The notes under the pieces are model-generated. The model had not been told where the DNA came from, made no database searches, and worked only from the letters and a program-made list of their open reading frames with translations. A program made the position numbers and the translations under genes. This document shows positions 2,384-55,050 of a stretch of DNA of 64,000 bases, one piece after another. Each line of letters begins with the position of its first letter. Position 1 is the stretch's first letter. Origin of the DNA: a virus (taxonomy: Duplodnaviria; Heunggongvirae; Uroviricota; Caudoviricetes); the IMG/VR virus record IMGVR_UViG_3300038829_000114. One strand, given 5' to 3'.

Positions 2384-2412
2384 TTGACAAAGTAATATAA
2401 ACCTGCTAAAAT
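2384..2412 (+). promoter_or_regulatory. strong sigma70-like promoter TTGACA-17-TAAAAT; its 16-nt core cTTGACAAAGTAATA is identical to the promoter at 40522
   Basis: -35 at 2384-2389 and -10 at 2407-2412. Confidence 0.55.
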
Positions 2413-2419
2413 ATAAGTT

Positions 2420-2711
2420 TAGTTTCCCACGGCTCATGGCATTTGGTGAAATAACTTGAGCCTAAATAATAATCACCCGCCTGGAGTATTCAGTAACTCT
2501 CACTGGTTTACGGGGCGATAATACCTGAGAAGGGTGTAGGTAATTAAGGTAGCAGCCTCTACATTAGTTATCGAAAGCTGGGGTGGCCTAATAGCAGCCA
2601 CATGGTTAGAGATATAGCGTTTGAACTGCTTTTAGAGACAATGGGAATATCGTCTCTACAGTCTCGCCGGTAGTAATAACCACTGATTAGGTTATTACTG
2701 CCGGATTTTTT
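2420..2711 (+). ncRNA. candidate ~290-nt noncoding transcript or tRNA leader between the promoter and the terminator hairpin upstream of tRNA(CAT)
   Basis: No ORF. Bounded by the promoter at 2384-2412 and the terminator at 2667-2711. Multiple hairpins (gtggc/gccac, gtag/ctac). Confidence 0.3.
2667..2711 (+). terminator. rho-independent terminator (15-bp stem ccggtagtaataacc/ggttattactgccgg + TTTTTT)
   Basis: Near-perfect inverted repeat followed by a T-run, ending 3 nt before the tRNA. Confidence 0.55.
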
Positions 2712-2713
2712 AC

Positions 2714-2789
2714 GCGCCGGTAGCTAAATTGGTTCAAAGCACCGTGCTCATAACACGGGGATGTGGGGGTTCGAATCCCTCCCGGCGTA
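2714..2789 (+). tRNA. tRNA with anticodon CAT (elongator Met or, more likely, lysidine-dependent tRNA-Ile2); no encoded CCA
   Basis: Hand-folded cloverleaf: acceptor GCGCCGG/CCGGCGT (G1·U72), anticodon stem CCGTG/CACGG, loop CTCATAA, T-loop GTTCGAATC. Not an initiator (G29-T30-G31). C4-G69/C5-G68 match tRNA-Ile2 identity elements. Confidence 0.8.
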
Positions 2790-14775: not shown

Positions 14776-14949
14776 GTTGTCAACCCCCTAAAAATGATTA
14801 GTCTCTTCCATACTATTAATATAACAGAGAGACCACACCCTGTCAAATAGAGAATAAGGTGTCTCTATAAGAGGGGTTATCATGGAACTGTGGCATGGTG
14901 TCTCTATGTACGTTATAATCCTTAGTAACATTTTGAAAGGGAAAATCAA

Positions 14950-15606
14950 ATGAAAACTACATGGTCAGTAAAAACGGCGAAAGCCTACGTTAAAAATTTA
15001 AGTTTGCCTAGTAAGATGCCGGGGTATTCCTACTCTATCCCCGCACAAAACTGTAAGGTAGGCGGACAACTGCAAAAAATTGAAGGGTCCACTTGCTCTA
15101 AGTGTTATTGTTTGCGTGGCAATTATCGCTGGCCCGTAGTTGAAAATGCCTTGAAAGCCCGTCTAAAGGCTATTAAAAAAGCTAAATGGGTTGAAGCTAT
15201 GGCTTTCCTTATCAATAACTATGGTTCAAAAGGCGACACACATTTTAGATTCCATGACAGCGGGGACTTGCAAAGCATGGAACACCTTGAAAATATTGTC
15301 TCTATTGCCAAACTAACTCCCCTTGTAAAAATATGGCTTCCAACGAGAGAGTATAAACTCATTAGAGACTATCTAGCCTCTGGTAAAGTATTCCCCGACA
15401 ATCTTACTGTTAGAGTCTCTAGCCCCATGATTGACGTTTATCAAATTGGGTTTGTTAAAATGGGGGTAACTGTTTCAGGTGTTCATAGCAACGATTCTAA
15501 GGCCCAAGGGTTTAAGTGTATTGCTAAAGATCAAGGGAACCAATGTCTTGATTGCCGTGCTTGTTGGGACAAAAATGTTAAGATAGTGTCTTACCACAAA
15601 CACTAA
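14950..15606 (+). CDS. hypothetical protein (218 aa)
   Basis: ORF with RBS GAAAGGGAAAATCAAATG and a TATAAT -10 upstream. Confidence 0.6.
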   Translation: MKTTWSVKTAKAYVKNLSLPSKMPGYSYSIPAQNCKVGGQLQKIEGSTCSKCYCLRGNYRWPVVENALKARLKAIKKAKWVEAMAFLINNYGSKGDTHFRFHDSGDLQSMEHLENIVSIAKLTPLVKIWLPTREYKLIRDYLASGKVFPDNLTVRVSSPMIDVYQIGFVKMGVTVSGVHSNDSKAQGFKCIAKDQGNQCLDCRACWDKNVKIVSYHKH

Positions 15607-15628
15607 AAGATAGTAAAATAGAGACTAT

Positions 15629-15712
15629 GCGACTATGGTGAAACTGGTAGACACAACAGACTTAAAATCTGTCGATGGCAACATCATCCCGGTTCAAGTC
15701 CGGGTAGTCGCA
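15629..15712 (+). tRNA. tRNA-Leu (anticodon TAA), class II with long variable arm
   Basis: Acceptor GCGACTA/TAGTCGC, anticodon stem ACAGA/TCTGT, loop CTTAAAA, variable arm GATGGCAACATCATCC, T-arm CGGGTTCAAGTCCCG. Confidence 0.8.
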
Positions 15713-15747
15713 ACACTGTATGTTTTATACTATGAATCTTATTCAAT

Positions 15748-17432: not shown

Positions 17433-17442
17433 ACACTGACTA
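17430..17442 (+). repeat. junction motif TAGACACTGACTA spanning the upstream stop TAG and abutting ATG 17442
   Basis: No room for an SD. Confidence 0.5.
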
Positions 17443-17639
17443 TGCAAATACTTTTTACTATCTATGCCATCGGTGCCTTATGGGTTCTGGTGGGTTCTAT
17501 AATTACTTCATTAGCCGAGGCCGGGGGCATATATAGAATCAAATGGTTTTTAATGGATCTGATCGTCTCTATATTTTGGCTCCCACTCTTTATCTATCTC
17601 TTTATTGATGAGTCTTTATTTGAGCATGATGTTTACTAG
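17442..17639 (+). CDS. small membrane protein
   Basis: Hydrophobic. Confidence 0.5.
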   Translation: MQILFTIYAIGALWVLVGSIITSLAEAGGIYRIKWFLMDLIVSIFWLPLFIYLFIDESLFEHDVY

Positions 17640-38771: not shown

Positions 38772-39701
38772 ATGTGGGACAACATTCGTAGAATTAATTC
38801 GTCTGATAAAAATGTAGCAAAGTTTGTTTTTGAGATGGGTACTGCTGTGGCGGAATCAGTGCTATACAAATACCCTACCTATGAAGATCGAACGGTTATT
38901 TGTTGCTCAACAATGAGTGGTTGTCCAATTGGTTGTCGCTTTTGTGGTGCAGGTGATAACTTTGTTCGATCATTAAATGCCGATGAGATTATATCGCAGC
39001 CAGTATACTTGCTAGATCAAACAGGTGTTGACCCAAACGCTATGACGCGGCTACAGATTATGTTTATGTCTATGGGTGAACCTATGCTTAATCTAAAGCA
39101 CCTTATCCCGGCGCTGGAGACACTGTATGCCAAATATCCAAAGGCAGCATTGCTTGTATCCACATCTGGTCCTGATATTGATTACAGCGATTTTAATGAG
39201 GTATCTAAAGCCATCCCAACAATCGGTCTACAATTCTCTGTGCATGAATCTACAGATGAAGCTAGAGATAAGTTGATCCCGTTTAGTAAGAAGCTGTCTT
39301 TGACACAAATTTCTACTGTAGGCAAGGATTGGTATAAAGCTACTGGCCGTCAACCGTTCTTTAACTATTGCGTACATGAAAACAACAATACATATGCAGA
39401 TGTAAACCGATTGTCTCATTTGTTTGACCCGTCTGTTTGGCAAGCTACAATATCTGTGATTTGTGAGCGTAACGAATCCATTGCTGCCGCGAACGAACGC
39501 CAGCGGGGGCTTGCCTCTGACTTTATGAGTAAGATGTTAAATAATAACTACTCTGTTCGTATGTTTGATCCTGCTGGACAAGATGATATTGGCGGCGGCT
39601 GCGGGCAGCTTTGGTTTGTGCAAGACTGGATGAAGAAAAATCCACACTTGGCCAAGCCATCTGTCGGTTATGGATTGCCGATGGTACATACCCCGGCGTA
39701 A
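38772..39701 (+). CDS. RlmN/Cfr-family radical-SAM RNA methyltransferase-like protein
   Basis: CX3CX2C (CPIGCRFC). Also MSMGEPMLN, STSG, S(V)HESTDEARDKLIP and the C-terminal GGGCGQL conserved-Cys motif, colinear with RlmN. Confidence 0.7.
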   Translation: MWDNIRRINSSDKNVAKFVFEMGTAVAESVLYKYPTYEDRTVICCSTMSGCPIGCRFCGAGDNFVRSLNADEIISQPVYLLDQTGVDPNAMTRLQIMFMSMGEPMLNLKHLIPALETLYAKYPKAALLVSTSGPDIDYSDFNEVSKAIPTIGLQFSVHESTDEARDKLIPFSKKLSLTQISTVGKDWYKATGRQPFFNYCVHENNNTYADVNRLSHLFDPSVWQATISVICERNESIAAANERQRGLASDFMSKMLNNNYSVRMFDPAGQDDIGGGCGQLWFVQDWMKKNPHLAKPSVGYGLPMVHTPA

Positions 39702-42448: not shown

Positions 42449-42478
42449 TTGACAACAATAGTTATTATCTGATATAAT
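42449..42478 (+). promoter_or_regulatory. sigma70-like promoter TTGACA-18-TATAAT for the tRNA-Arg pair
   Basis: -35 at 42449-54 and -10 at 42473-78; the first tRNA begins 9 nt later. Confidence 0.55.
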
Positions 42479-42486
42479 AATTGTAG

Positions 42487-42555
42487 GCCCATGGTAATAG
42501 GATACAGGCGAATCTTCTAAATTTGCCGTTGGACGTTCGAGTCGTCTCGTGGGCA
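42487..42555 (+). tRNA. tRNA-Arg (anticodon TCT), compact with a short D-arm
   Basis: Acceptor GCCCATG/CGTGGGC (one G·U pair), anticodon stem CGAAT/ATTTG, loop CTTCTAA, T-arm GGACG-TTCGAGT-CGTCT. Confidence 0.6.
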
Positions 42556-42559
42556 ACAT

Positions 42560-42630
42560 GGCCTAGCTATCTGGATGTAGGCGCGAATTTCCTAAATTTG
42601 CTGCGGTAGGTTCAAATCCTATCTAGGCCG
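42560..42630 (+). tRNA. tRNA-Arg (anticodon CCT)
   Basis: Acceptor GGCCTAG/CTAGGCC (perfect), anticodon stem CGAAT/ATTTG, loop TTCCTAA, T-arm GTAGG-TTCAAAT-CCTAT. Confidence 0.65.
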
Positions 42631-45252: not shown

Positions 45253-46332
45253 ATGGAAACTGCATTACAAAAAGCACTGCGCTCTGGGGAAACTCCAGAA
45301 CAACTAAAAGAACGACTTGGGGTCGGATTCTATGTTCATCCCTCTTTGCCTTTAGTTGGATTTAAATATTCACAGATTGATAGTCCAAAGGCAGACCCAG
45401 TGGTTTTAGCCTCTCGTGGTACTGTGCTCGAAAAAGATACTTGGAATTTAGTTGCACAACCTTTTTTCAGATTCTTCAATTATGGTGAGCAGGAGACTGA
45501 TAAAAAGTTTGTTTTTCCAGGCTCATCTGCGTTTGCGAAAGAAGACGGCTCTTTAATGATCGTCTATAATTATAATGAAAACTGGCATGTTAATACGTCT
45601 GGTTCTTTCGGTATTCAAGAATGTGGGTTCTCAGGTAAAACTTGGGGCCAGTTATTCTGGGAGACCTCAAAACTGGATAAATCTAAACTAGACCCAAAGA
45701 ATACCTATATCTTTGAACTATGCACTGTTTGGAACAAGATCGTCCGTATGTACCCAGAACCTAAAACTCCTTTAACCGGGGTCATAGAGACGGCTACGTT
45801 ACATGACTATCCAAATCCTTGGGTAAAAGCTGTTGGGGAAGAGTTAGGTGTTGGGTATCCAGCACTAGTATATTTTTCCTCAATACAAGAGGTCCACGAC
45901 TGCTTAACCCAAACTTCAGCTAAAGACCCTACTTTTGAAGGTTTGGTATTGCGGGATATGAATGGGCTTCGAGTTAAGATCAAGACGGATACTTATTTAG
46001 CTCTACACCACATGGCAGATAATGGTAATTTAGGTAATCCTAAATATATTGTTAAGTATCTCCTAAAAGGTGAGAAGGATGAGATTATTACATACTTTCC
46101 TGAGCTAAAAGCTAAGATAGAGGATGTAGAAGCCACTTTAAACACTCATAAACAGGCTTTATTAGCGCTTTGGGAAGAAACTAAGGGTATCGTGGCCCAG
46201 AAGGACTTTGCCCTTGCTATTGTTGGAAATACGCCTTTTACGGGCATTCTGTTTAATGCACGTAAGACAGGTGCCGATCCTGCTAAGATTTGGCACGAGT
46301 CAGATGAATTGATTGTTAAAGTTTTGTACTAA
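45253..46332 (+). CDS. RNA ligase 1 (T4 RnlA-like) family nucleotidyltransferase
   Basis: Motif I FAKEDGSL (KxDG, identical to the T4 Rnl1 TKEDGSL), motif IV EGLVLR, motif V RVKIKT. Confidence 0.65.
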   Translation: METALQKALRSGETPEQLKERLGVGFYVHPSLPLVGFKYSQIDSPKADPVVLASRGTVLEKDTWNLVAQPFFRFFNYGEQETDKKFVFPGSSAFAKEDGSLMIVYNYNENWHVNTSGSFGIQECGFSGKTWGQLFWETSKLDKSKLDPKNTYIFELCTVWNKIVRMYPEPKTPLTGVIETATLHDYPNPWVKAVGEELGVGYPALVYFSSIQEVHDCLTQTSAKDPTFEGLVLRDMNGLRVKIKTDTYLALHHMADNGNLGNPKYIVKYLLKGEKDEIITYFPELKAKIEDVEATLNTHKQALLALWEETKGIVAQKDFALAIVGNTPFTGILFNARKTGADPAKIWHESDELIVKVLY

Positions 46333-46919: not shown

Positions 46920-47123
46920 ATGACACTCCCAAAAGTATATGTTTTTATCGGGGCTGACGGATACGTGCTGTCGGTCAGTAGTGACAAACCCGTTGAGGTT
47001 ATTCAAGTTGACTACTCGCCAATGGCTACTCTTGACAAGCATGCTACACTAAAGCTTGAACAAGAAATGCGAAAAAATACAGTGTTTACAAAATCGTTTT
47101 ACGGAGATACTAAAAATGTCTGA
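46920..47123 (+). CDS. hypothetical protein
   Basis: ORF. Confidence 0.45.
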   Translation: MTLPKVYVFIGADGYVLSVSSDKPVEVIQVDYSPMATLDKHATLKLEQEMRKNTVFTKSFYGDTKNV

Positions 47124-48159
47124 ATGGAAAGTTAGCGTTGAAGCTATTGAAATATTTGACCACCCCAATGCAGACCGCATGCAAATTGGGAAAGTTGGTA
47201 CTTATCAGGTAGTTGTGCAGAAAAACTTGTACAAGACTGGGGATATTGTTGCGTTTGCGCCGGAAAAGTCTATTCTTCCACAATCTTTGAAAGAGCCTTG
47301 GGAAAAATACCTTACCGGCACTAACAAAGATCGGGTCAAGGGAGTGCGCTTACGTGGGGAATTTTCGTGTGGTATTATCATCCCGTTGACTACTGTCCAA
47401 GAAAAACTTGGCTATGTTCCTGAAGTCGGCGTAGACATTTCAGAAAAACTCTCAATCCGTAAATTTGAGCCACCTGTCCCTGTCGCTTTAATGGGCAGCG
47501 TTCAGAAGTTTCCAGAGTTTATCAACAACACTTTGGCCGGTGCTCATGACTGTGAACACTTTAGAACATATGTAAACGAGTTTGTTGCCGGTGAACGTGT
47601 AATAGTACAAGAAAAATTGCATGGTAGCCAGTTAATTTGTACTGCCGATGCCGGGGGTAATAACCCAACAATAACGTCTAAAGGTTTGCGTAAAGACGAT
47701 CTTTGTATTAAAGAGAGCGAAGCCAACTCTTACTGGCAAGCTTTCCATAACTGCAAACTACAAGATGTGCTGTTCGAGGCGGCTTTAACACACTCCCCGA
47801 CTAAAGTTATACGAGTGTTTGGTGAATTGGTGCCTTGCCAAAAGGGTTATGCCTATGGCTTGACAAAACCTGAAGTTCGTATTTTTGACATCCGGGTTGA
47901 TGGGCAATCTATTCCGTATGACCAAGCTCCGCCAAGCGCAAAGAAAATCTGGGTTCCATTGCTCTATGACGGGCCTTTTGAAGAAGTTAAGATACTGCCT
48001 CTTTGTGAGGGTAACGAGCAGGTCTCTGGCAAAGAATACCATATCCGTGAGGGCTGTGTTGTTTCTCCATATATAGACAGGTATGCTAAGGACCGAACAC
48101 GCCTGCGTTTGAAGGTTATTAATCCTAAGTACAAGGATGAAGACGATGCGTTCAACTAA
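47116..48159 (+). CDS. Rnl2-family (KxHG) RNA ligase-like nucleotidyltransferase with an N-terminal extra domain
   Basis: Motif I QEKLHGSQ (T4 Rnl2 has EKIHGTN), motif IV REGCVV, motif V LKVINPKYK. ATG 47116 overlaps the previous stop. Confidence 0.6.
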   Translation: MSEWKVSVEAIEIFDHPNADRMQIGKVGTYQVVVQKNLYKTGDIVAFAPEKSILPQSLKEPWEKYLTGTNKDRVKGVRLRGEFSCGIIIPLTTVQEKLGYVPEVGVDISEKLSIRKFEPPVPVALMGSVQKFPEFINNTLAGAHDCEHFRTYVNEFVAGERVIVQEKLHGSQLICTADAGGNNPTITSKGLRKDDLCIKESEANSYWQAFHNCKLQDVLFEAALTHSPTKVIRVFGELVPCQKGYAYGLTKPEVRIFDIRVDGQSIPYDQAPPSAKKIWVPLLYDGPFEEVKILPLCEGNEQVSGKEYHIREGCVVSPYIDRYAKDRTRLRLKVINPKYKDEDDAFN

Positions 48160-49254: not shown

Positions 49255-50898
49255 ATGCCTAGCGAATCAAGAACTCTACAAACAAAGATTAACGGAGTAC
49301 AGATTTACAAGTCTTCGTTCAATCCAAAAACTGGAATGATCGTCAGAGAAACTGTTGAAGGTCTTGATGACTTTGACATGACTCTTACACGATATGTTGG
49401 CTGGAAAAGCGGGGAGTTAGCCCCAACATTTGAACGTGGTGAGTATTTTTGGAATTACGATAAAGACAGAGAGTTTGGAACCAAGGCTTTTCAAGGTTTT
49501 TCGAGATCGAGAACAGAGAAAGCGTTTTCTGTGGTGCCTGAGACTGTAGATATTAAGATCACAGAATGGTGCGATTTTGGTTGTTCTTACTGCTACATGG
49601 ATAGTACAACTACAGCCAAAAAGACAGACGCTATCACACTTGTAAAAAATATTGTGAAAGGCTTCGACCATGCCCCGTATCAATTTGCGTTCGGTGGGGG
49701 CGAACCTTGTTCGTACAAAGACCTCCCAAAGCTTTTGAAAGTAACACGGGAGCTTGGGGTTGTACCTAATTTTACAACCGCTGGTCATATTTTTCGAGAA
49801 GATGTGATTAAAGCTGCAAACAAATATTGTGGCGGCGTTGCTTTAACATACCACCGTTTTAAGGGAGTTGACTTTTTCAAGGAAACGTATGCTAAATGGC
49901 GTGGCGCTCTTAATATCCAAATGAATATTCATGTTATCGCTGATGATGATGTTATTAAGTCGCTGTCTGAGTTAGAGACTATTCAGGCCGAGCTTGGTGG
50001 TACATTTAATATTGTTTTGTTGGCTTACTATCCAAACGTTGGTCGTGCTGATTATAGCCGCGTTATGGATAAGAAAGTTTTTAACGATACCTTACCATCT
50101 GTTATTCGCAAGATGCAACGCAGGCCAGCGGATTTTAGAATTGCTTTTTCTGAGGGCTTACTACCTTATTTCAACTCTCGTGATATTGTGGACATGCAAA
50201 TGGCTACGACACAAGAGGGCAGATTTTCTTGTTATATTGACAACTATGGTCGTATGAGTACCAGTAGCTTTTCAAAGCCTGATATTAAGACACCGACTGT
50301 TTTTGATAAGAGAGCACAAGAGCTTTGGAATAGCCTACAGATGCCGTGGCAGAAACAATCTATCTGTTACGGTTGTCCAAAGTCTTCTAAGTGTAACGCT
50401 CCTGATCTAACACACATGTTGTACTGTGCGTACTCTCCTCTAAACAAAGGTGGAGACCACATTAACGATTACAATCCTTATAATGTTTCAGATCGGCGCA
50501 ACCCAAACAGATTTAACACACAGATTACCGCTATTGGTAGTTTTGTAACGAACTCGTCTTCGGTTATTTGTGCGTTTCCAAAAGAAGTTTTAGACAGCCC
50601 GCAGGTTAGGGCGGTCATTGAAAAATACGGTTTCGATTTGGACCACGTTGGAGATGTTTGGTATCGTGGGTCTTGTGGGTCAATTGCTTCATCTGCGGCT
50701 AAAAAAAGACTCTTAAAAAGTGAGTTGAGTTCGGAAGAATATGGGGAACGTGTTGCTGGCCAAATTGACGTGGACGATGGTAATGTCTATGTTGTGTATG
50801 GCGATGAATATACATCGACAGAGACAATTTTCCTCGATCTTTTAAAAGAAGTTTTGGGCGGAGAGTTGAAATATGTTGTCCATGATGATTTTAACTAA
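49255..50898 (+). CDS. radical-SAM enzyme with SPASM/twitch-like C-terminal Cys cluster (547 aa)
   Basis: CX3CX2C at aa 106-113 (CDFGCSYC), then FAFGGGEP. Late cluster CYGCPKSSKCN…YCAY. RBS ACGGAG. Confidence 0.75.
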   Translation: MPSESRTLQTKINGVQIYKSSFNPKTGMIVRETVEGLDDFDMTLTRYVGWKSGELAPTFERGEYFWNYDKDREFGTKAFQGFSRSRTEKAFSVVPETVDIKITEWCDFGCSYCYMDSTTTAKKTDAITLVKNIVKGFDHAPYQFAFGGGEPCSYKDLPKLLKVTRELGVVPNFTTAGHIFREDVIKAANKYCGGVALTYHRFKGVDFFKETYAKWRGALNIQMNIHVIADDDVIKSLSELETIQAELGGTFNIVLLAYYPNVGRADYSRVMDKKVFNDTLPSVIRKMQRRPADFRIAFSEGLLPYFNSRDIVDMQMATTQEGRFSCYIDNYGRMSTSSFSKPDIKTPTVFDKRAQELWNSLQMPWQKQSICYGCPKSSKCNAPDLTHMLYCAYSPLNKGGDHINDYNPYNVSDRRNPNRFNTQITAIGSFVTNSSSVICAFPKEVLDSPQVRAVIEKYGFDLDHVGDVWYRGSCGSIASSAAKKRLLKSELSSEEYGERVAGQIDVDDGNVYVVYGDEYTSTETIFLDLLKEVLGGELKYVVHDDFN

Positions 50899-51521
50899 TG
50901 ATTAGATTTTTGGGCGAACTTCCGAGAGAATGTTATATTGCCGTGTCTGGTGGTCCTGATAGCATGGCTGTGTTAGATTTCTTGGCGCATGATGGAAAAC
51001 GAGATATTACTGTACTACACGTAAATCACGGAACTGCGTTTGGTAACTTAGAGGGTATGCCGGTAACAGGAAGATACTGTGACAGGAACAGAATTAAGTG
51101 GTCGAACACTTTTATTGATACACAGCCGGAGTCTAATAAAGAAAATTACTGGCGGGAAAAGAGATATGAATTTTTTAATAAGTTTACAGATAAGCCACTA
51201 ATTACATGCCACACGCTTGATGATTGTATTGAGACCTGGTTTTTTGGTGCCTGTCATGGAACACCTAAACTAATCCCATATCGTAGAGGACATATTATTA
51301 GACCGTTCTTAGTGACTCCGAAAAACGAGCTTGTTAGGTGGTGCGATGATCATGGCGTCCCATTTGCTGTTGACCCAAGTAACTCAGACCCGGCCTACAT
51401 GCGGTCGTTAATCCGTACAGAAATGGTACCAACAGTTTTAAAAGTAAACCCTGGTATCAGTAAGGTTATAAAGCGCAAAGTGGAAGAAGACTTTGCAGCT
51501 ACAGAAACGTGTGCTGTTTAA
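50898..51521 (+). CDS. tilS: tRNA(Ile)-lysidine synthetase (TilS) catalytic-domain-like PP-loop ATPase
   Basis: PP-loop SGGPDS. Also VLHVNHG, HTLDDCIETWFF, IIRPFLV…DPSN…Y.R..IR, colinear with the TilS N-terminal domain. ATGA overlap with the rSAM gene. Confidence 0.65.
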   Translation: MIRFLGELPRECYIAVSGGPDSMAVLDFLAHDGKRDITVLHVNHGTAFGNLEGMPVTGRYCDRNRIKWSNTFIDTQPESNKENYWREKRYEFFNKFTDKPLITCHTLDDCIETWFFGACHGTPKLIPYRRGHIIRPFLVTPKNELVRWCDDHGVPFAVDPSNSDPAYMRSLIRTEMVPTVLKVNPGISKVIKRKVEEDFAATETCAV

Positions 51522-51993: not shown

Positions 51994-54900
51994 TTAGTAA
52001 ACAACGGTCTCTTTACCGAAAAGAAGTTCGTATATATCTTCTGGAATCTGGCGTTTGTATTTACGGGCAATTTTCATAGCCAACACACCCTGTTTAGGAG
52101 TAAGTTGTTGGAGCAAGCCAAGTTTTTTACCAATGTCTGCATCTAATTTATTAAAACCCATTCCATCTAACTCCCTAGCTCCGTCGCAGTATCCAGCAAG
52201 CAGTCGAATAGCAATATGAGCAGCTTTCAATTGGGCATCAGTAATCTTAACAGCCTCTTCTTCAAGCTCTTTGCGATCTAACTTGATTGGTTCTGGAACA
52301 GGAATGATAGGCTGTGATCGGGTAGTCTCTAAGTCTTCATCAAGAGCTTTGTCAATAATCTCTTGTTTTTCAATAATAGTCTTAGCCATGGTTGCGTCAA
52401 TAGAGCCTTCCAAAACCAAGTGTTGAACTAATACTGGGGTCATTTTTGTAACGTGACGAACGCGATCCTCTGCTTGAGAAACGTTGCCTGGAACCCAATC
52501 TTCTTCAATCATTAGAATATGGCTTGATACCGCCAAATTAATACCTACCCCGGCAGCACCAATTGTTCCAATAAACAGGTTGCAAGTAGGATCGTTTTGA
52601 AACCGCTCAATCTCTTCCTGACGCTTGGTTACAGGAGTATCTCCAGTAATTACAGCAGCATTAGGAAACTCAGCCCGAATAATAGAGACTACCTCTTTGT
52701 GGTGAGCAAACACAACAAGTTTATAATTAGGGTCGTTGTCATCAAAAATATCTGAGATATAGTCAACAACCAGCGGAGCCTTGGCGATAGCTGTCTCTCT
52801 ACGAACTGCCGAGATTTCTTCAAAAGACAGCTTAACACCATCTTGTAAAGATTTTACAGCATTTGCATATTCAGTTGGATCATCTGACACCTTGGCTAAT
52901 TCAACAGCAGCTTTAAGAGAGTCTAAACGTTCTGTATATTGAGACTCTTTTTTAAGAGCTTTTAGGCATGTTTTATCAGCAGGTATTTCGATAACCTGAC
53001 GCTGCTTGAGAGGCATTTCTGGGAACACTTCTTCAAATGTACGCCGGATCATAATAGAGGCGCGGAGTTTTGTTTGAAGCTCATCTAGGTTTGAAGCACC
53101 GTCATAATGATGGCCATATTGATCTGTATAGCCATTGCAGTAGCGTTTACTGAAATAGTAGAAAGATTTCCAGGTATTTGAATCAAGCGAATTGACCAAC
53201 GTCCACAATTCTTTCGGACGGTTTACAATAGGCGTACCTGTCATGTAAATCTTTTTCTTGGCTGGAATAGGTTTGATTTCCCATTCATATGTTTTTGGGG
53301 CCAACTTACCCAAAATATTCTGGGTTCTTTTTGTTTTATAATTTTTACAGTTAGAAACCAACACCCCGTTGGCAAAATAATTATTATTATCCGCTATCTC
53401 TATGTTGTAAACAAATTTATTTTCTCCACCACTAATTCTAAATTTTCCAATACTTCCTTGTTCTTGAATCGAACAACTCTCCACCCTAGAAAATTTAGTA
53501 TAGACTCTTTCCGTTTGTCCAGAAATCTCCACTTTTTTGTGTCGTGGCTTCTTCCATCTATCTCTACTGCTAACATTTTCTCTGGAATTCCTATATCTAC
53601 TTTGTAGCAGTGAGGAAGACTTGGAAATTTTCCTTTTGCTGGAGACGTTTGAATTATATACTCTGTGTTTTCCATTAAATTTAGCTTTTCCGCTAAAAGT
53701 TTTTGAGGAACCGTAAGCTGGCCGTTCCCACCGCGACTTAAAAAGGTTCTCCCTACCATTTTCTTCCGCATTTTTTCTACTGATTCTGGGTTCGACATTG
53801 GGTTGTTTTTTTTCATTCTTTCCGATGATTTTGGGTTTGGCTTTCCTGTAATAGCTGCCACCGCTTTTTTTATAGCTTTTCTCGAATGATCTCGTCGTCC
53901 TGGCAACGTCATCATCCACACACCACGACAATGGTTTGAACAAAATCTTCTTTTGTAAATCCCCTTTGAATAGTGAGGTTTTACTAAAAACTGCTTTTTG
54001 CAGGTTTCGCACTCCAAGCTTATTTTTGGCTTCAAAGTTGCCAACCGTATTTTTTCTCTCACTTCTGGTTGAGAATTCGTCCACTTCGCGGAACATTTTA
54101 GAGAACAAAATCTTCGAGTGTTTTTCCCTAGCTTTTCTGCGGTAAAAATCTTTTGGCAAAAACCACAGGTTTTCTCTATTTTTGATCTTCCGCGCTTCGA
54201 CATAATCTTGCCTTGTTAGTGAATAAATTTTATGGTTAGATGTACAACCAAATTCCCCATACTTATGTTTTACAGACACTAAATCTTCGTACAAAGGATT
54301 AGAAAATCTGGTTAGTATATCTTTATATTCAAGACAATTTTTATTATGATTAAAGGATAACACTTTTAAGCTGAGATTTTTTGTTACAATATCCCCTATT
54401 TTTTTTGTACCCTTATCAGTATAGACTTCAGTATCATATGGAAAACAATAATGGGCTTCGTCTAGGATTAACAAATCCCAATCTATGCCATCAATTATAG
54501 TCTTATGTCTGGACACTAAATCATAATTTATAATGACAATATCAGTATCTGGGAAGGTGTCCCCCGTGACTACACCTATATTTCGTTTTGTAACTAACCA
54601 TTTGTTGGCTTCGTTTCTCCAATTGAGCTTCACAGTTGCTGGGCAAATTATAAGAATTTTACGAATGGTTTGTACGTTGTTGATAATACCAAGAGCTTGA
54701 ATAGTCTTCCCAAGTCGCATAGCATCAGCTAAGAGAATGTTTGGCTTGGCGATACCAAAAGCAATGCCAGCTTTTTGATAGGGATAGTATTCTAAACCTT
54801 TGGGTCTGATAAAATCTACAGCCGATTCGACGGCTTGGGACATCTCGATAGTTTTATAGAACTCTTCTAAACGCTTTTTTACATCATCAGAAGCATAATT

Positions 54901-55050
54901 AACGAGTTTGTAAGCTCTATCAGCATCGTAGGTGTACCAGTATTTTTGCGCCCCGTCCCACCAGAAATCGGCGGATTTGGGGATATGTTTCTCAGAATAC
55001 TGGGAAACAACATAATAGCGGCGTTTGATATCGTCGTACTTTAATTCCAT
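51994..55050 (-). CDS. SNF2-family DEAH-box helicase interrupted by an in-frame intein (1018-aa precursor; about 652 aa after splicing)
   Basis: GKT Walker A, LILDEAH motif II immediately followed by a Cys; C-terminal helicase motifs (TGTPIVN, FAHH, QAEDRVRHV). Confidence 0.8.
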   Translation of the reverse strand: MELKYDDIKRRYYVVSQYSEKHIPKSADFWWDGAQKYWYTYDADRAYKLVNYASDDVKKRLEEFYKTIEMSQAVESAVDFIRPKGLEYYPYQKAGIAFGIAKPNILLADAMRLGKTIQALGIINNVQTIRKILIICPATVKLNWRNEANKWLVTKRNIGVVTGDTFPDTDIVIINYDLVSRHKTIIDGIDWDLLILDEAHYCFPYDTEVYTDKGTKKIGDIVTKNLSLKVLSFNHNKNCLEYKDILTRFSNPLYEDLVSVKHKYGEFGCTSNHKIYSLTRQDYVEARKIKNRENLWFLPKDFYRRKAREKHSKILFSKMFREVDEFSTRSERKNTVGNFEAKNKLGVRNLQKAVFSKTSLFKGDLQKKILFKPLSWCVDDDVARTTRSFEKSYKKSGGSYYRKAKPKIIGKNEKKQPNVEPRISRKNAEENGRENLFKSRWERPAYGSSKTFSGKAKFNGKHRVYNSNVSSKRKISKSSSLLQSRYRNSRENVSSRDRWKKPRHKKVEISGQTERVYTKFSRVESCSIQEQGSIGKFRISGGENKFVYNIEIADNNNYFANGVLVSNCKNYKTKRTQNILGKLAPKTYEWEIKPIPAKKKIYMTGTPIVNRPKELWTLVNSLDSNTWKSFYYFSKRYCNGYTDQYGHHYDGASNLDELQTKLRASIMIRRTFEEVFPEMPLKQRQVIEIPADKTCLKALKKESQYTERLDSLKAAVELAKVSDDPTEYANAVKSLQDGVKLSFEEISAVRRETAIAKAPLVVDYISDIFDDNDPNYKLVVFAHHKEVVSIIRAEFPNAAVITGDTPVTKRQEEIERFQNDPTCNLFIGTIGAAGVGINLAVSSHILMIEEDWVPGNVSQAEDRVRHVTKMTPVLVQHLVLEGSIDATMAKTIIEKQEIIDKALDEDLETTRSQPIIPVPEPIKLDRKELEEEAVKITDAQLKAAHIAIRLLAGYCDGARELDGMGFNKLDADIGKKLGLLQQLTPKQGVLAMKIARKYKRQIPEDIYELLFGKETVVY
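53350..54447 (-). mobile_element. intein (366 aa) inserted in helicase motif II
   Basis: N-terminal block CFPYDTEV…TSNH (TxxH); C-terminal blocks VYNIEIADNNNYFANGVLVSN followed by the extein Cys. The central 380 codons are open but low-complexity K/R-rich. Confidence 0.65.
53400..54203 (-). mobile_element. homing-endonuclease gene nested inside the intein but in a different reading frame: 2x Zn-ribbon, NUMOD3-like repeats, C-terminal DUF559/Vsr-like PD-(D/E)xK nuclease
   Basis: Own SD (AAGG) 8 nt before the ATG. Motifs RRFCSLKCSAKW / RRFCSNHCRGVW and AVEIDGRSHD…GWRVVRF. Frame offset from the intein confirmed by codon phase (55050 vs 54203). Confidence 0.6.

Follow-up and report, generated by a model that had tools for sequence, protein, structure and literature searches.

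TilS is the enzyme that forms lysidine on bacterial tRNA-Ile2, and the work on its chemistry reportedly goes back to Muramatsu 1988 and Soma 2003. It is treated as bacteria-specific and essential, and its appended domains are held to explain how tRNA-Ile2 is discriminated from tRNA-Met. The lysidine chemistry is established (PMC12514573). TilS proteins have so far been described only as type I, with two C-terminal domains (CTD1 and CTD2), type II, with CTD1 only, and longer fusion forms (PMC11947777). An engineered TilS lacking CTD2 was weakly active and had lost discrimination at pair 3:70 while still rejecting tRNA-Met (PMC12514573; PMC11947777), and how a TilS without CTD2 discriminates is an open question (PMC11947777). 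Here we analysed a 64,000-nucleotide stretch of DNA (the window) from IMG/VR virus record IMGVR_UViG_3300038829_000114, a phage of the class Caudoviricetes, which encodes a tRNA with the anticodon CAU, tRNA(CAU), and a short TilS-like protein (Table 1). We propose, with a probability of about 0.68, that the two form a self-contained module for decoding AUA codons, the activity, substrate and recognition mode of the enzyme being predicted from sequence.

In such a module, the tRNA(CAU) would be transcribed with its CAU anticodon, and in its unmodified form would be a substrate of MetRS that decodes AUG. The short TilS, a predicted PP-loop ATP pyrophosphatase, would adenylate C2 of C34 and then transfer lysine to give lysidine at this position (k2C34), after which the tRNA would read AUA and be charged by IleRS instead. 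With no C-terminal domains, the short TilS would be left with its catalytic domain for tRNA recognition, and its contacts would most likely be to the anticodon stem-loop. The tRNA-Leu(UAA) and tRNA-Arg(UCU/CCU) genes of the window would add readers for heavily used A-ending and AGR codons. A phage-encoded TilS would free lysidine formation from a scarce host enzyme, as the host TilS has a minor tRNA as its substrate and might be present in limiting amounts, or might miss a foreign tRNA.

Isotype of the tRNA(CAU)

The initial annotation described a tRNA with a CAT anticodon, not an initiator because its anticodon stem reads G-U-G instead of GGG, and with the acceptor pairs C4-G69 and C5-G68, given as determinants for TilS. 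All these statements hold. ARAGORN called a tRNA(cat) and Rfam RF00005 matched on exactly the same span (61.5 bits, E = 7e-11). The RNA folds into a cloverleaf with a 7-nucleotide anticodon loop (CUCAUAA). Its acceptor stem consists of G1.U72, C2-G71, G3-C70, C4-G69, C5-G68, G6-C67 and G7-C66 and is followed by A73; the D stem includes C11-G24 and U12-A23, and the anticodon stem is made of C27-G43, C28-G42, G29-C41, U30-A40 and G31-C39. The marks of initiators (a 1x72 mismatch, A11-U24/G12-C23 and G29G30G31) are absent, their places being taken by G1.U72, C11-G24, U12-A23 and G29-U30-G31. These determinants are right for Escherichia coli, where C4:G69 and C5:G68 are the dominant identity elements of TilS, while the element of the Burkholderia enzyme is G3:C70 (PMC12514573). 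In the classification of 1,070 CAU tRNAs by Silva et al., G3, A3, C70 and T70 exclude Met and initiator (fMet) tRNAs, both of which have C3-G70; tRNA-Ile(CAU) often has C4-G69 and C5-G68, and fMet is marked by A11-T24/G12-C23 (PMC1635315). The window tRNA is of the Ile type at every position of this rule.

We then compared it with isotype-style models derived from a scan of species-representative genomes, which yielded 120 loci and 105 unique bacterial CAU tRNAs (59 fMet, 24 Ile2 and 19 Met); the E. coli tRNA-Ile2 sequence used for reference was checked and found 100% identical to genes annotated as tRNA-Ile. Profile scores were 31.8 bits for Ile2, 11.3 for Met and −44.8 for fMet. The Ile2-minus-Met difference (+20.5 bits) is within the leave-one-out range of Ile2 tRNAs (5.6 to 50.8) and outside that of Met tRNAs (−43.6 to −2.3). 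Covariance models built on the same training sets gave 61.3 bits for Ile2 vs 51.0 for Met, to be read against differences of about −8 to +7 between these models for unrelated tRNAs. Both kinds of model place the tRNA with Ile2 over elongator Met, as the initial annotation had expected. In the bacterial sample the classes diverge overwhelmingly at pairs 3-70, 4-69 and 5-68, followed by position 72, and the profiles classified 43/43 tRNAs correctly in leave-one-out when all positions were used and 32/43 without the acceptor stem.

Several features of the tRNA weigh against the proposed module. The Ile2 call hangs almost entirely on three acceptor pairs (3-70, 4-69 and 5-68), whose removal lowers the score to −10.3 bits, towards Met, because G1.U72 and C2-G71 lean that way; with the entire acceptor stem left out, it is an uninformative +1.3 bits. 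In the sample, G1.U72 occurs in 11/19 Met vs 2/24 Ile2 tRNAs, and C2-G71 in 2/19 vs 0/24. The supervised test is partly circular, since the training labels use position 3-70, and when the bacterial CAU tRNAs were clustered unsupervised with positions 3-5 and 68-70 left out, fMet split off and Met was not separated from Ile2. The tRNA also has an A13.A22 mismatch and a variable region of 6 nucleotides, its gene does not encode the CCA end, and 9 nucleotides 5' of the gene is the end of a terminator-like hairpin (15 bp, with a T-tract).

The tRNA(CAU) could be an ordinary elongator tRNA-Met, with TilS acting on the tRNA-Ile2 of the host or on a phage tRNA encoded outside the window; the source contig is of at least 107 kb, and other tRNAs may exist there. 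The lean of the profile towards Met outside pairs 3 to 5 fits this explanation. However, none of the Met tRNAs of the sample combines G3-C70, C4-G69 and C5-G68, the score difference is outside the Met range, and G1.U72 is also present in 5/11 CAU tRNAs that lie next to short-TilS genes in other phages and otherwise score as Ile2. Nor does codon bias give a reason for an extra tRNA-Met, since AUA codons outnumber AUG codons in the window. We thus consider an elongator tRNA-Met quite unlikely. Judged by its sequence, the tRNA(CAU) is of the Ile2 type, in an atypical form. A further objection, the missing C29-G41 (an element for E. coli IleRS), was dropped, as many bacterial Ile2 tRNAs have G29-C41.

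A search for close relatives of this tRNA among deposited phages found none, and an exact search with its anticodon arm in IMG/VR returned 9 unrelated loci in which Ile2-type and initiator-type tRNAs were mixed. Upstream of the gene is a site that resembles a strong promoter (TTGACA-17-TAAAAT with TG). The motif TTTTAGAGACA is enriched in the window, with 13 sites (at most one mismatch) vs 2.4 expected and as many in 0/100 shuffles. These sites (for example at 2630, 2959, 22635, 27423, 27999 and 61786) are mainly on the plus strand, and a longer form, about ATAGCTCTTWTAGAGACAC, is found at several intergenic sites and on both sides of the tRNA(CAU). The motif is a candidate for a promoter or regulatory site specific to this phage.

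The short TilS and its linkage to CAU tRNAs

The TilS-like enzyme announced by the initial annotation at position 50898 was confirmed, as a catalytic domain alone. The protein matches the Pfam PP-loop family PF01171 (4e-31) and the NCBIfam model TIGR02432, lysidine_TilS_N, with 107.5 bits (cut-off 93.6), while the equivalog for full-length TilS, NF007942, gives 43.5 bits (cut-off 606). Its alignment to solved structures is restricted to their N-domains (residues 22-220 of 464 in Geobacillus TilS 3A2K, 14-207 of 433 in E. coli MesJ 1NI5 and 25-225 of 317 in Aquifex TilS 1WY5), at about 20-27% identity. The AlphaFold2 model is one compact domain (pLDDT 94, pTM 0.90), and the top six Foldseek matches are TilS proteins with TMq of 0.76-0.83 and TMt of just 0.37-0.56. 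The motifs SGGxDS, NHGT, E..WR..RY, HxLDDxxE and RPF are invariant over 31 family members, and the short TilS keeps all of them. There is no C-terminal tRNA-binding domain: the protein ends at residue 207 and the model has a single domain. An Fe-S thiolase identity (TtcA, TtuA or NcsA) was rejected, because no Cys is invariant, or even near-invariant, in the family alignment and the structures of NcsA and TtuA rank below every solved TilS in Foldseek.

Proteins of this kind form a recurrent phage family, of which the short TilS of the window is one more member. We found about 110 clusters of proteins of 195-226 residues that are 38-54% identical to it, whereas full-length bacterial TilS come up no better than at E ~1e-17. 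In IMG/VR, relatives are present on at least 502 viral contigs, and the family open reading frames (ORFs) that were fetched were all (80/80) of 195-245 residues. The short TilS of the window is no truncation artefact. Among deposited phages, the best matches (45-47% identity) were in two megaphages whose genomes exceed 630 kb, followed by the PA5oct/MIJ3 group (about 40%), whose 203-residue homologue is annotated tilS. The closest deposited homologue (198 residues, L002:19992-20588) is that of the uncultured megaphage LR756502.1. Around it, between 12864 and 28208, this genome carries 25 tRNA genes, including a tRNA-Ile(UAU), a type able to read AUA without lysidine.

The link between this family and AUA decoding comes from a tRNA scan of 80 short-TilS loci (up to ±10 kb), which were collapsed to 58 TilS clusters. 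CAU was the commonest tRNA species over the 80 loci. It was found within 150 nucleotides of the TilS gene in 13/58 clusters, followed by UGU (4) and UCU (3). Locus-wide after collapsing, CAU (24 clusters) was no commoner than UGU (23), and it is adjacency to TilS that sets CAU apart (13/24 vs 16/209 for other anticodons; odds ratio 14, Fisher test, P = 1.1e-7). The adjacent CAU tRNAs are on the TilS strand, upstream in some loci and downstream in others. With 11 distinct sequences among them, a single inherited accident does not account for the arrangement. None of the 11 is of the initiator type, and C3-G70 is absent in 10 of them, the eleventh having the C3/C4/C5 pattern of E. coli. The Ile2 covariance model exceeded the Met model in 10/10 adjacent tRNAs reported by both (by 6 to 21 bits); the tRNA of locus L063 scored 34.5 bits with the Ile2 model and was under the reporting threshold of the Met model. 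Several of these tRNAs lack C4-G69 and C5-G68, in keeping with an enzyme blind to the acceptor stem. The pair G1.U72 of the window tRNA (2714/2788) recurs in five of the adjacent tRNAs (L018, L031, L058, L070 and L076) and could be an identity element, or an anti-determinant, for the minimal enzyme.

On the side of the enzyme, other points tell against the module. All characterised TilS enzymes require at least one C-terminal domain, and engineered CTD2 deletion leaves weak activity (PMC11947777). The acceptor pairs are read by CTD2, which the phage enzyme lacks, so the argument from these pairs concerns the host TilS and not the phage enzyme. Across 61 short-TilS loci, we found no conserved neighbour protein able to supply tRNA binding. 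Finally, the tRNA(CAU) and TilS genes of the window are 48 kb apart and not adjacent; the argument from linkage therefore holds at the level of the family and not locally.

These points raise the possibility that a full-length host TilS modifies the tRNA(CAU), and that the short TilS does another job, on another tRNA or nucleotide, with another amine, or as a supplement. The G3-C70, C4-G69 and C5-G68 pairs would suit the CTD2 of a type I host TilS, and the distance between the two genes suits this explanation as well. There is also a precedent, which the proposed module shares, in a vibriophage tRNA(CAU), on which k2C34 has been measured (PMC13191261), and TilS accepts 5-aminovaleramide in vitro (PMC13602947). 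However, the repeated linkage of short TilS to Ile2-type CAU tRNAs is hard to explain with a different substrate, the adjacent tRNAs without C4-G69/C5-G68 should be poor substrates for a host TilS of the E. coli type, and the catalytic motifs of the short TilS are those of TilS. We regard this division of labour as unlikely.

Lacking the domains that give discrimination between Ile2 and Met, the short TilS might also be promiscuous and turn any CAU tRNA, including the Met and fMet tRNAs of the host, into an AUA reader, either boosting AUA decoding or sabotaging host translation. The chlorovirus literature loosely has TilS acting on "tRNA-Met" (PMC7589089). Yet the loss of Met and fMet decoding would cripple phage translation too, the rejection of tRNA-Met survives the engineered removal of CTD2 (PMC11947777), and linkage to a dedicated Ile2-type tRNA points to a cognate substrate. 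We find such promiscuity highly improbable and retain a module in which the phage enzyme serves its own tRNA. By extension, the chances are about even that the phage proteins of about 200 residues make up a third, catalytic-domain-only class of TilS, which would discriminate tRNA without an appended domain and travel with a co-evolving tRNA-Ile2 as a portable cassette for host-independent AUA decoding.

The Pseudomonas phage MIJ3 (locus L003) offers another view of CAU tRNAs in this family. Two of its genes annotated as tRNA-Met (14831-14907 and 15312-15388) are identical at positions 8 to 65 and differ in the acceptor stem, one being Ile2-like (G3-C70) and the other ambiguous to Met-like (C3-G70 and U4-A69). 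From their sequences the pair looks like duplicates whose identity was switched via the acceptor stem alone. A third CAU gene (17442-17518) is initiator-like, with C1xA72.

Companion tRNAs, codon usage and neighbouring genes

The initial annotation had also named tRNA-Leu(UAA) and tRNA-Arg(UCU/CCU) as companions of the tRNA(CAU). ARAGORN bears out the UAA and UCU genes; the CCU gene remains a weak call, with a score below the Rfam gathering score and no call by ARAGORN. With Rfam at E ≤ 1, the span of the UCU gene was not detected. Both Arg genes give cloverleaf folds in which the D arm is reduced, and their anticodon stems are nearly identical. Immediately 5' of this pair (window 42450-42630, plus strand) is a TG-extended sigma-70 promoter close to consensus (TTGACA-N18-TATAAT), and such sigma-70-like promoters hint at a conventional bacterial host.

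Table 1. Position of the tRNA genes, the short TilS gene and other features in the 64,000-nucleotide window
Feature	Position	Strand	Evidence
Promoter-like site 5' of tRNA(CAU)	2384..2412	+	
Terminator-like hairpin	2667..2704	+	
tRNA(CAU), Ile2-type, predicted substrate for lysidine at C34	2714..2789	+	ARAGORN, Rfam, cloverleaf fold, profile and covariance scores
tRNA-Leu(UAA), UUA reader	15628..15714	+	ARAGORN; Rfam 58.3 bits
Second radical-SAM ORF, orphan	38772..39701	+	
tRNA-Arg(UCU), reduced D arm, AGA reader	42487..42555	+	ARAGORN; cloverleaf-like fold z = −2.3
tRNA-Arg(CCU)-like gene, weak call, anticodon loop UUCCUAA, in tandem with the UCU gene	42560..42630	+	Rfam RF00005 25.3 bits (gathering score 29); fold z = −2.9
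RNA ligase, T4 Rnl1-type (tRNA-repair ligase family)	45253..46332	+	PF09511, phrog_562
RNA ligase with OB-fold	47056..48159	+	PF09414, PHA02142
Radical-SAM ORF, 547 residues, orphan	49255..50898	+	
Short TilS, 207 residues, N-terminal catalytic PP-loop domain only, no CTD1/CTD2	50898..51521	+	PF01171, TIGR02432, PDB alignment, AlphaFold2/Foldseek, family motifs
SNF2-family helicase split by an intein	51994..55050	−	Pfam Intein_splicing (residues 212-567)
267-residue ORF inside the intein insert, in a different frame	53400..54203	−	

Codon usage was computed from 120 greedily called ORFs of the window (17,048 codons). Of the Ile codons, 27% are AUA, which reaches 18.3 per 1000, above AUG (17.2 per 1000); these values, which bear out the AUA use expected by the initial annotation, are a measure of heavy use and not of excess over the host. 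The top Leu and Arg codons are UUA (27%) and AGA (28%), respectively. As reference species, E. coli is reported to use AUA at 4.9 per 1000 and Burkholderia cenocepacia at 0.6 per 1000 (PMC12514573).

The gene preceding that of the short TilS encodes a 547-residue radical-SAM protein and is translationally coupled to it, the start codon of TilS overlapping its stop codon (TAATG). This protein belongs to a large unnamed family found on big phage-like contigs, with inteins in some members. The enzyme that converts lysidine into ava2C is still unidentified in the literature (PMC11938285; PMC13602947). A role of the 547-residue protein as this enzyme is unsupported: its homologues are never beside a PP-loop gene, and it is absent from other short-TilS loci. 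The two RNA ligase genes are 3-5 kb upstream of the TilS gene, and relatives of these ligases, at most 34% identical, come from mixed hosts. Their position suggests that the region around the ligases and TilS is a neighbourhood for RNA and tRNA maintenance. Downstream of TilS, the intein-split helicase has its helicase motifs on either side of the insert.

Significance and comparison with known systems

A widespread natural family of TilS without any appended domain, often encoded beside its presumed substrate, offers a minimal system for the question of discrimination, and biochemistry and genetic-code engineering would find in its loci enzymes already paired with tRNAs. With regard to phages, the family suggests that tRNA supply is insufficient by itself and that certain phages also contribute the modification on which the identity of a tRNA depends. 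Many phage genes annotated as tRNA-Met beside short-TilS ORFs are probably tRNA-Ile2. A full-text literature search found no description of a phage TilS without all C-terminal domains, nor of its linkage to Ile2-type tRNAs; these two features appear undescribed, whereas the pathway and the theme of virus-encoded TilS are already known.

A close reference for both components is the bacterial pair of TilS and tRNA-Ile2 (E. coli tilS/ileX; structures 1NI5, 3A2K and 2E89). The enzymes share the PP-loop domain, its motifs and the predicted k2C34 chemistry, and the tRNAs share the CUCAUAA loop, C4-G69, C5-G68 and A73. In contrast, bacterial TilS have 310-500 residues, with two C-terminal tRNA-binding domains in type I and one in type II, where the phage protein has none, and the window tRNA is set apart by G1.U72 and C2-G71. 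Phage-encoded tRNA-Ile2 are a classical finding, exemplified by the tRNA-Ile of T4 and by ileZ-argN-argO of Stx phages. Unlike the phage studied here, those that carry a tRNA-Ile2 and no TilS presumably depend on the TilS of their host. A T4-like vibriophage likewise has a CAU tRNA turned into an AUA reader by k2C34, carried together with Arg(UCU) and Leu(UAA) tRNAs that serve rare codons (PMC13191261).

Among phages that encode TilS, the Pseudomonas jumbo phages MIJ3 and PA5oct are similar in content: MIJ3 has the short TilS (gp263) and the same trio of CAU, Leu-UAA and Arg-UCU tRNAs as the window. Yet these are unrelated phages without nucleotide match to that of the window, which comes from a groundwater metagenome, and megablast of 20 kb of the window against INPHARED gave no match. 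The MIJ3 protein was reported as "function unknown", and neither its truncation nor a link to CAU tRNAs was mentioned (PMC6892783). Other reports of phage TilS concern RsoM2USA, with a 349-residue form, and some pelagimyophages. The TilS of chloroviruses and giant viruses is also virus-encoded and was proposed to raise AUA decoding where viral AUA use far exceeds that of the host; it differs in belonging to eukaryotic viruses, in having a target loosely given as tRNA-Met and in the lack of a described linkage to a cognate tRNA (PMC7589089). The plastid pair tilS-trnI(CAU), although organellar, resembles the proposed phage module in that a reduced genome has kept enzyme and tRNA together as a module of two genes (PMC13494906).

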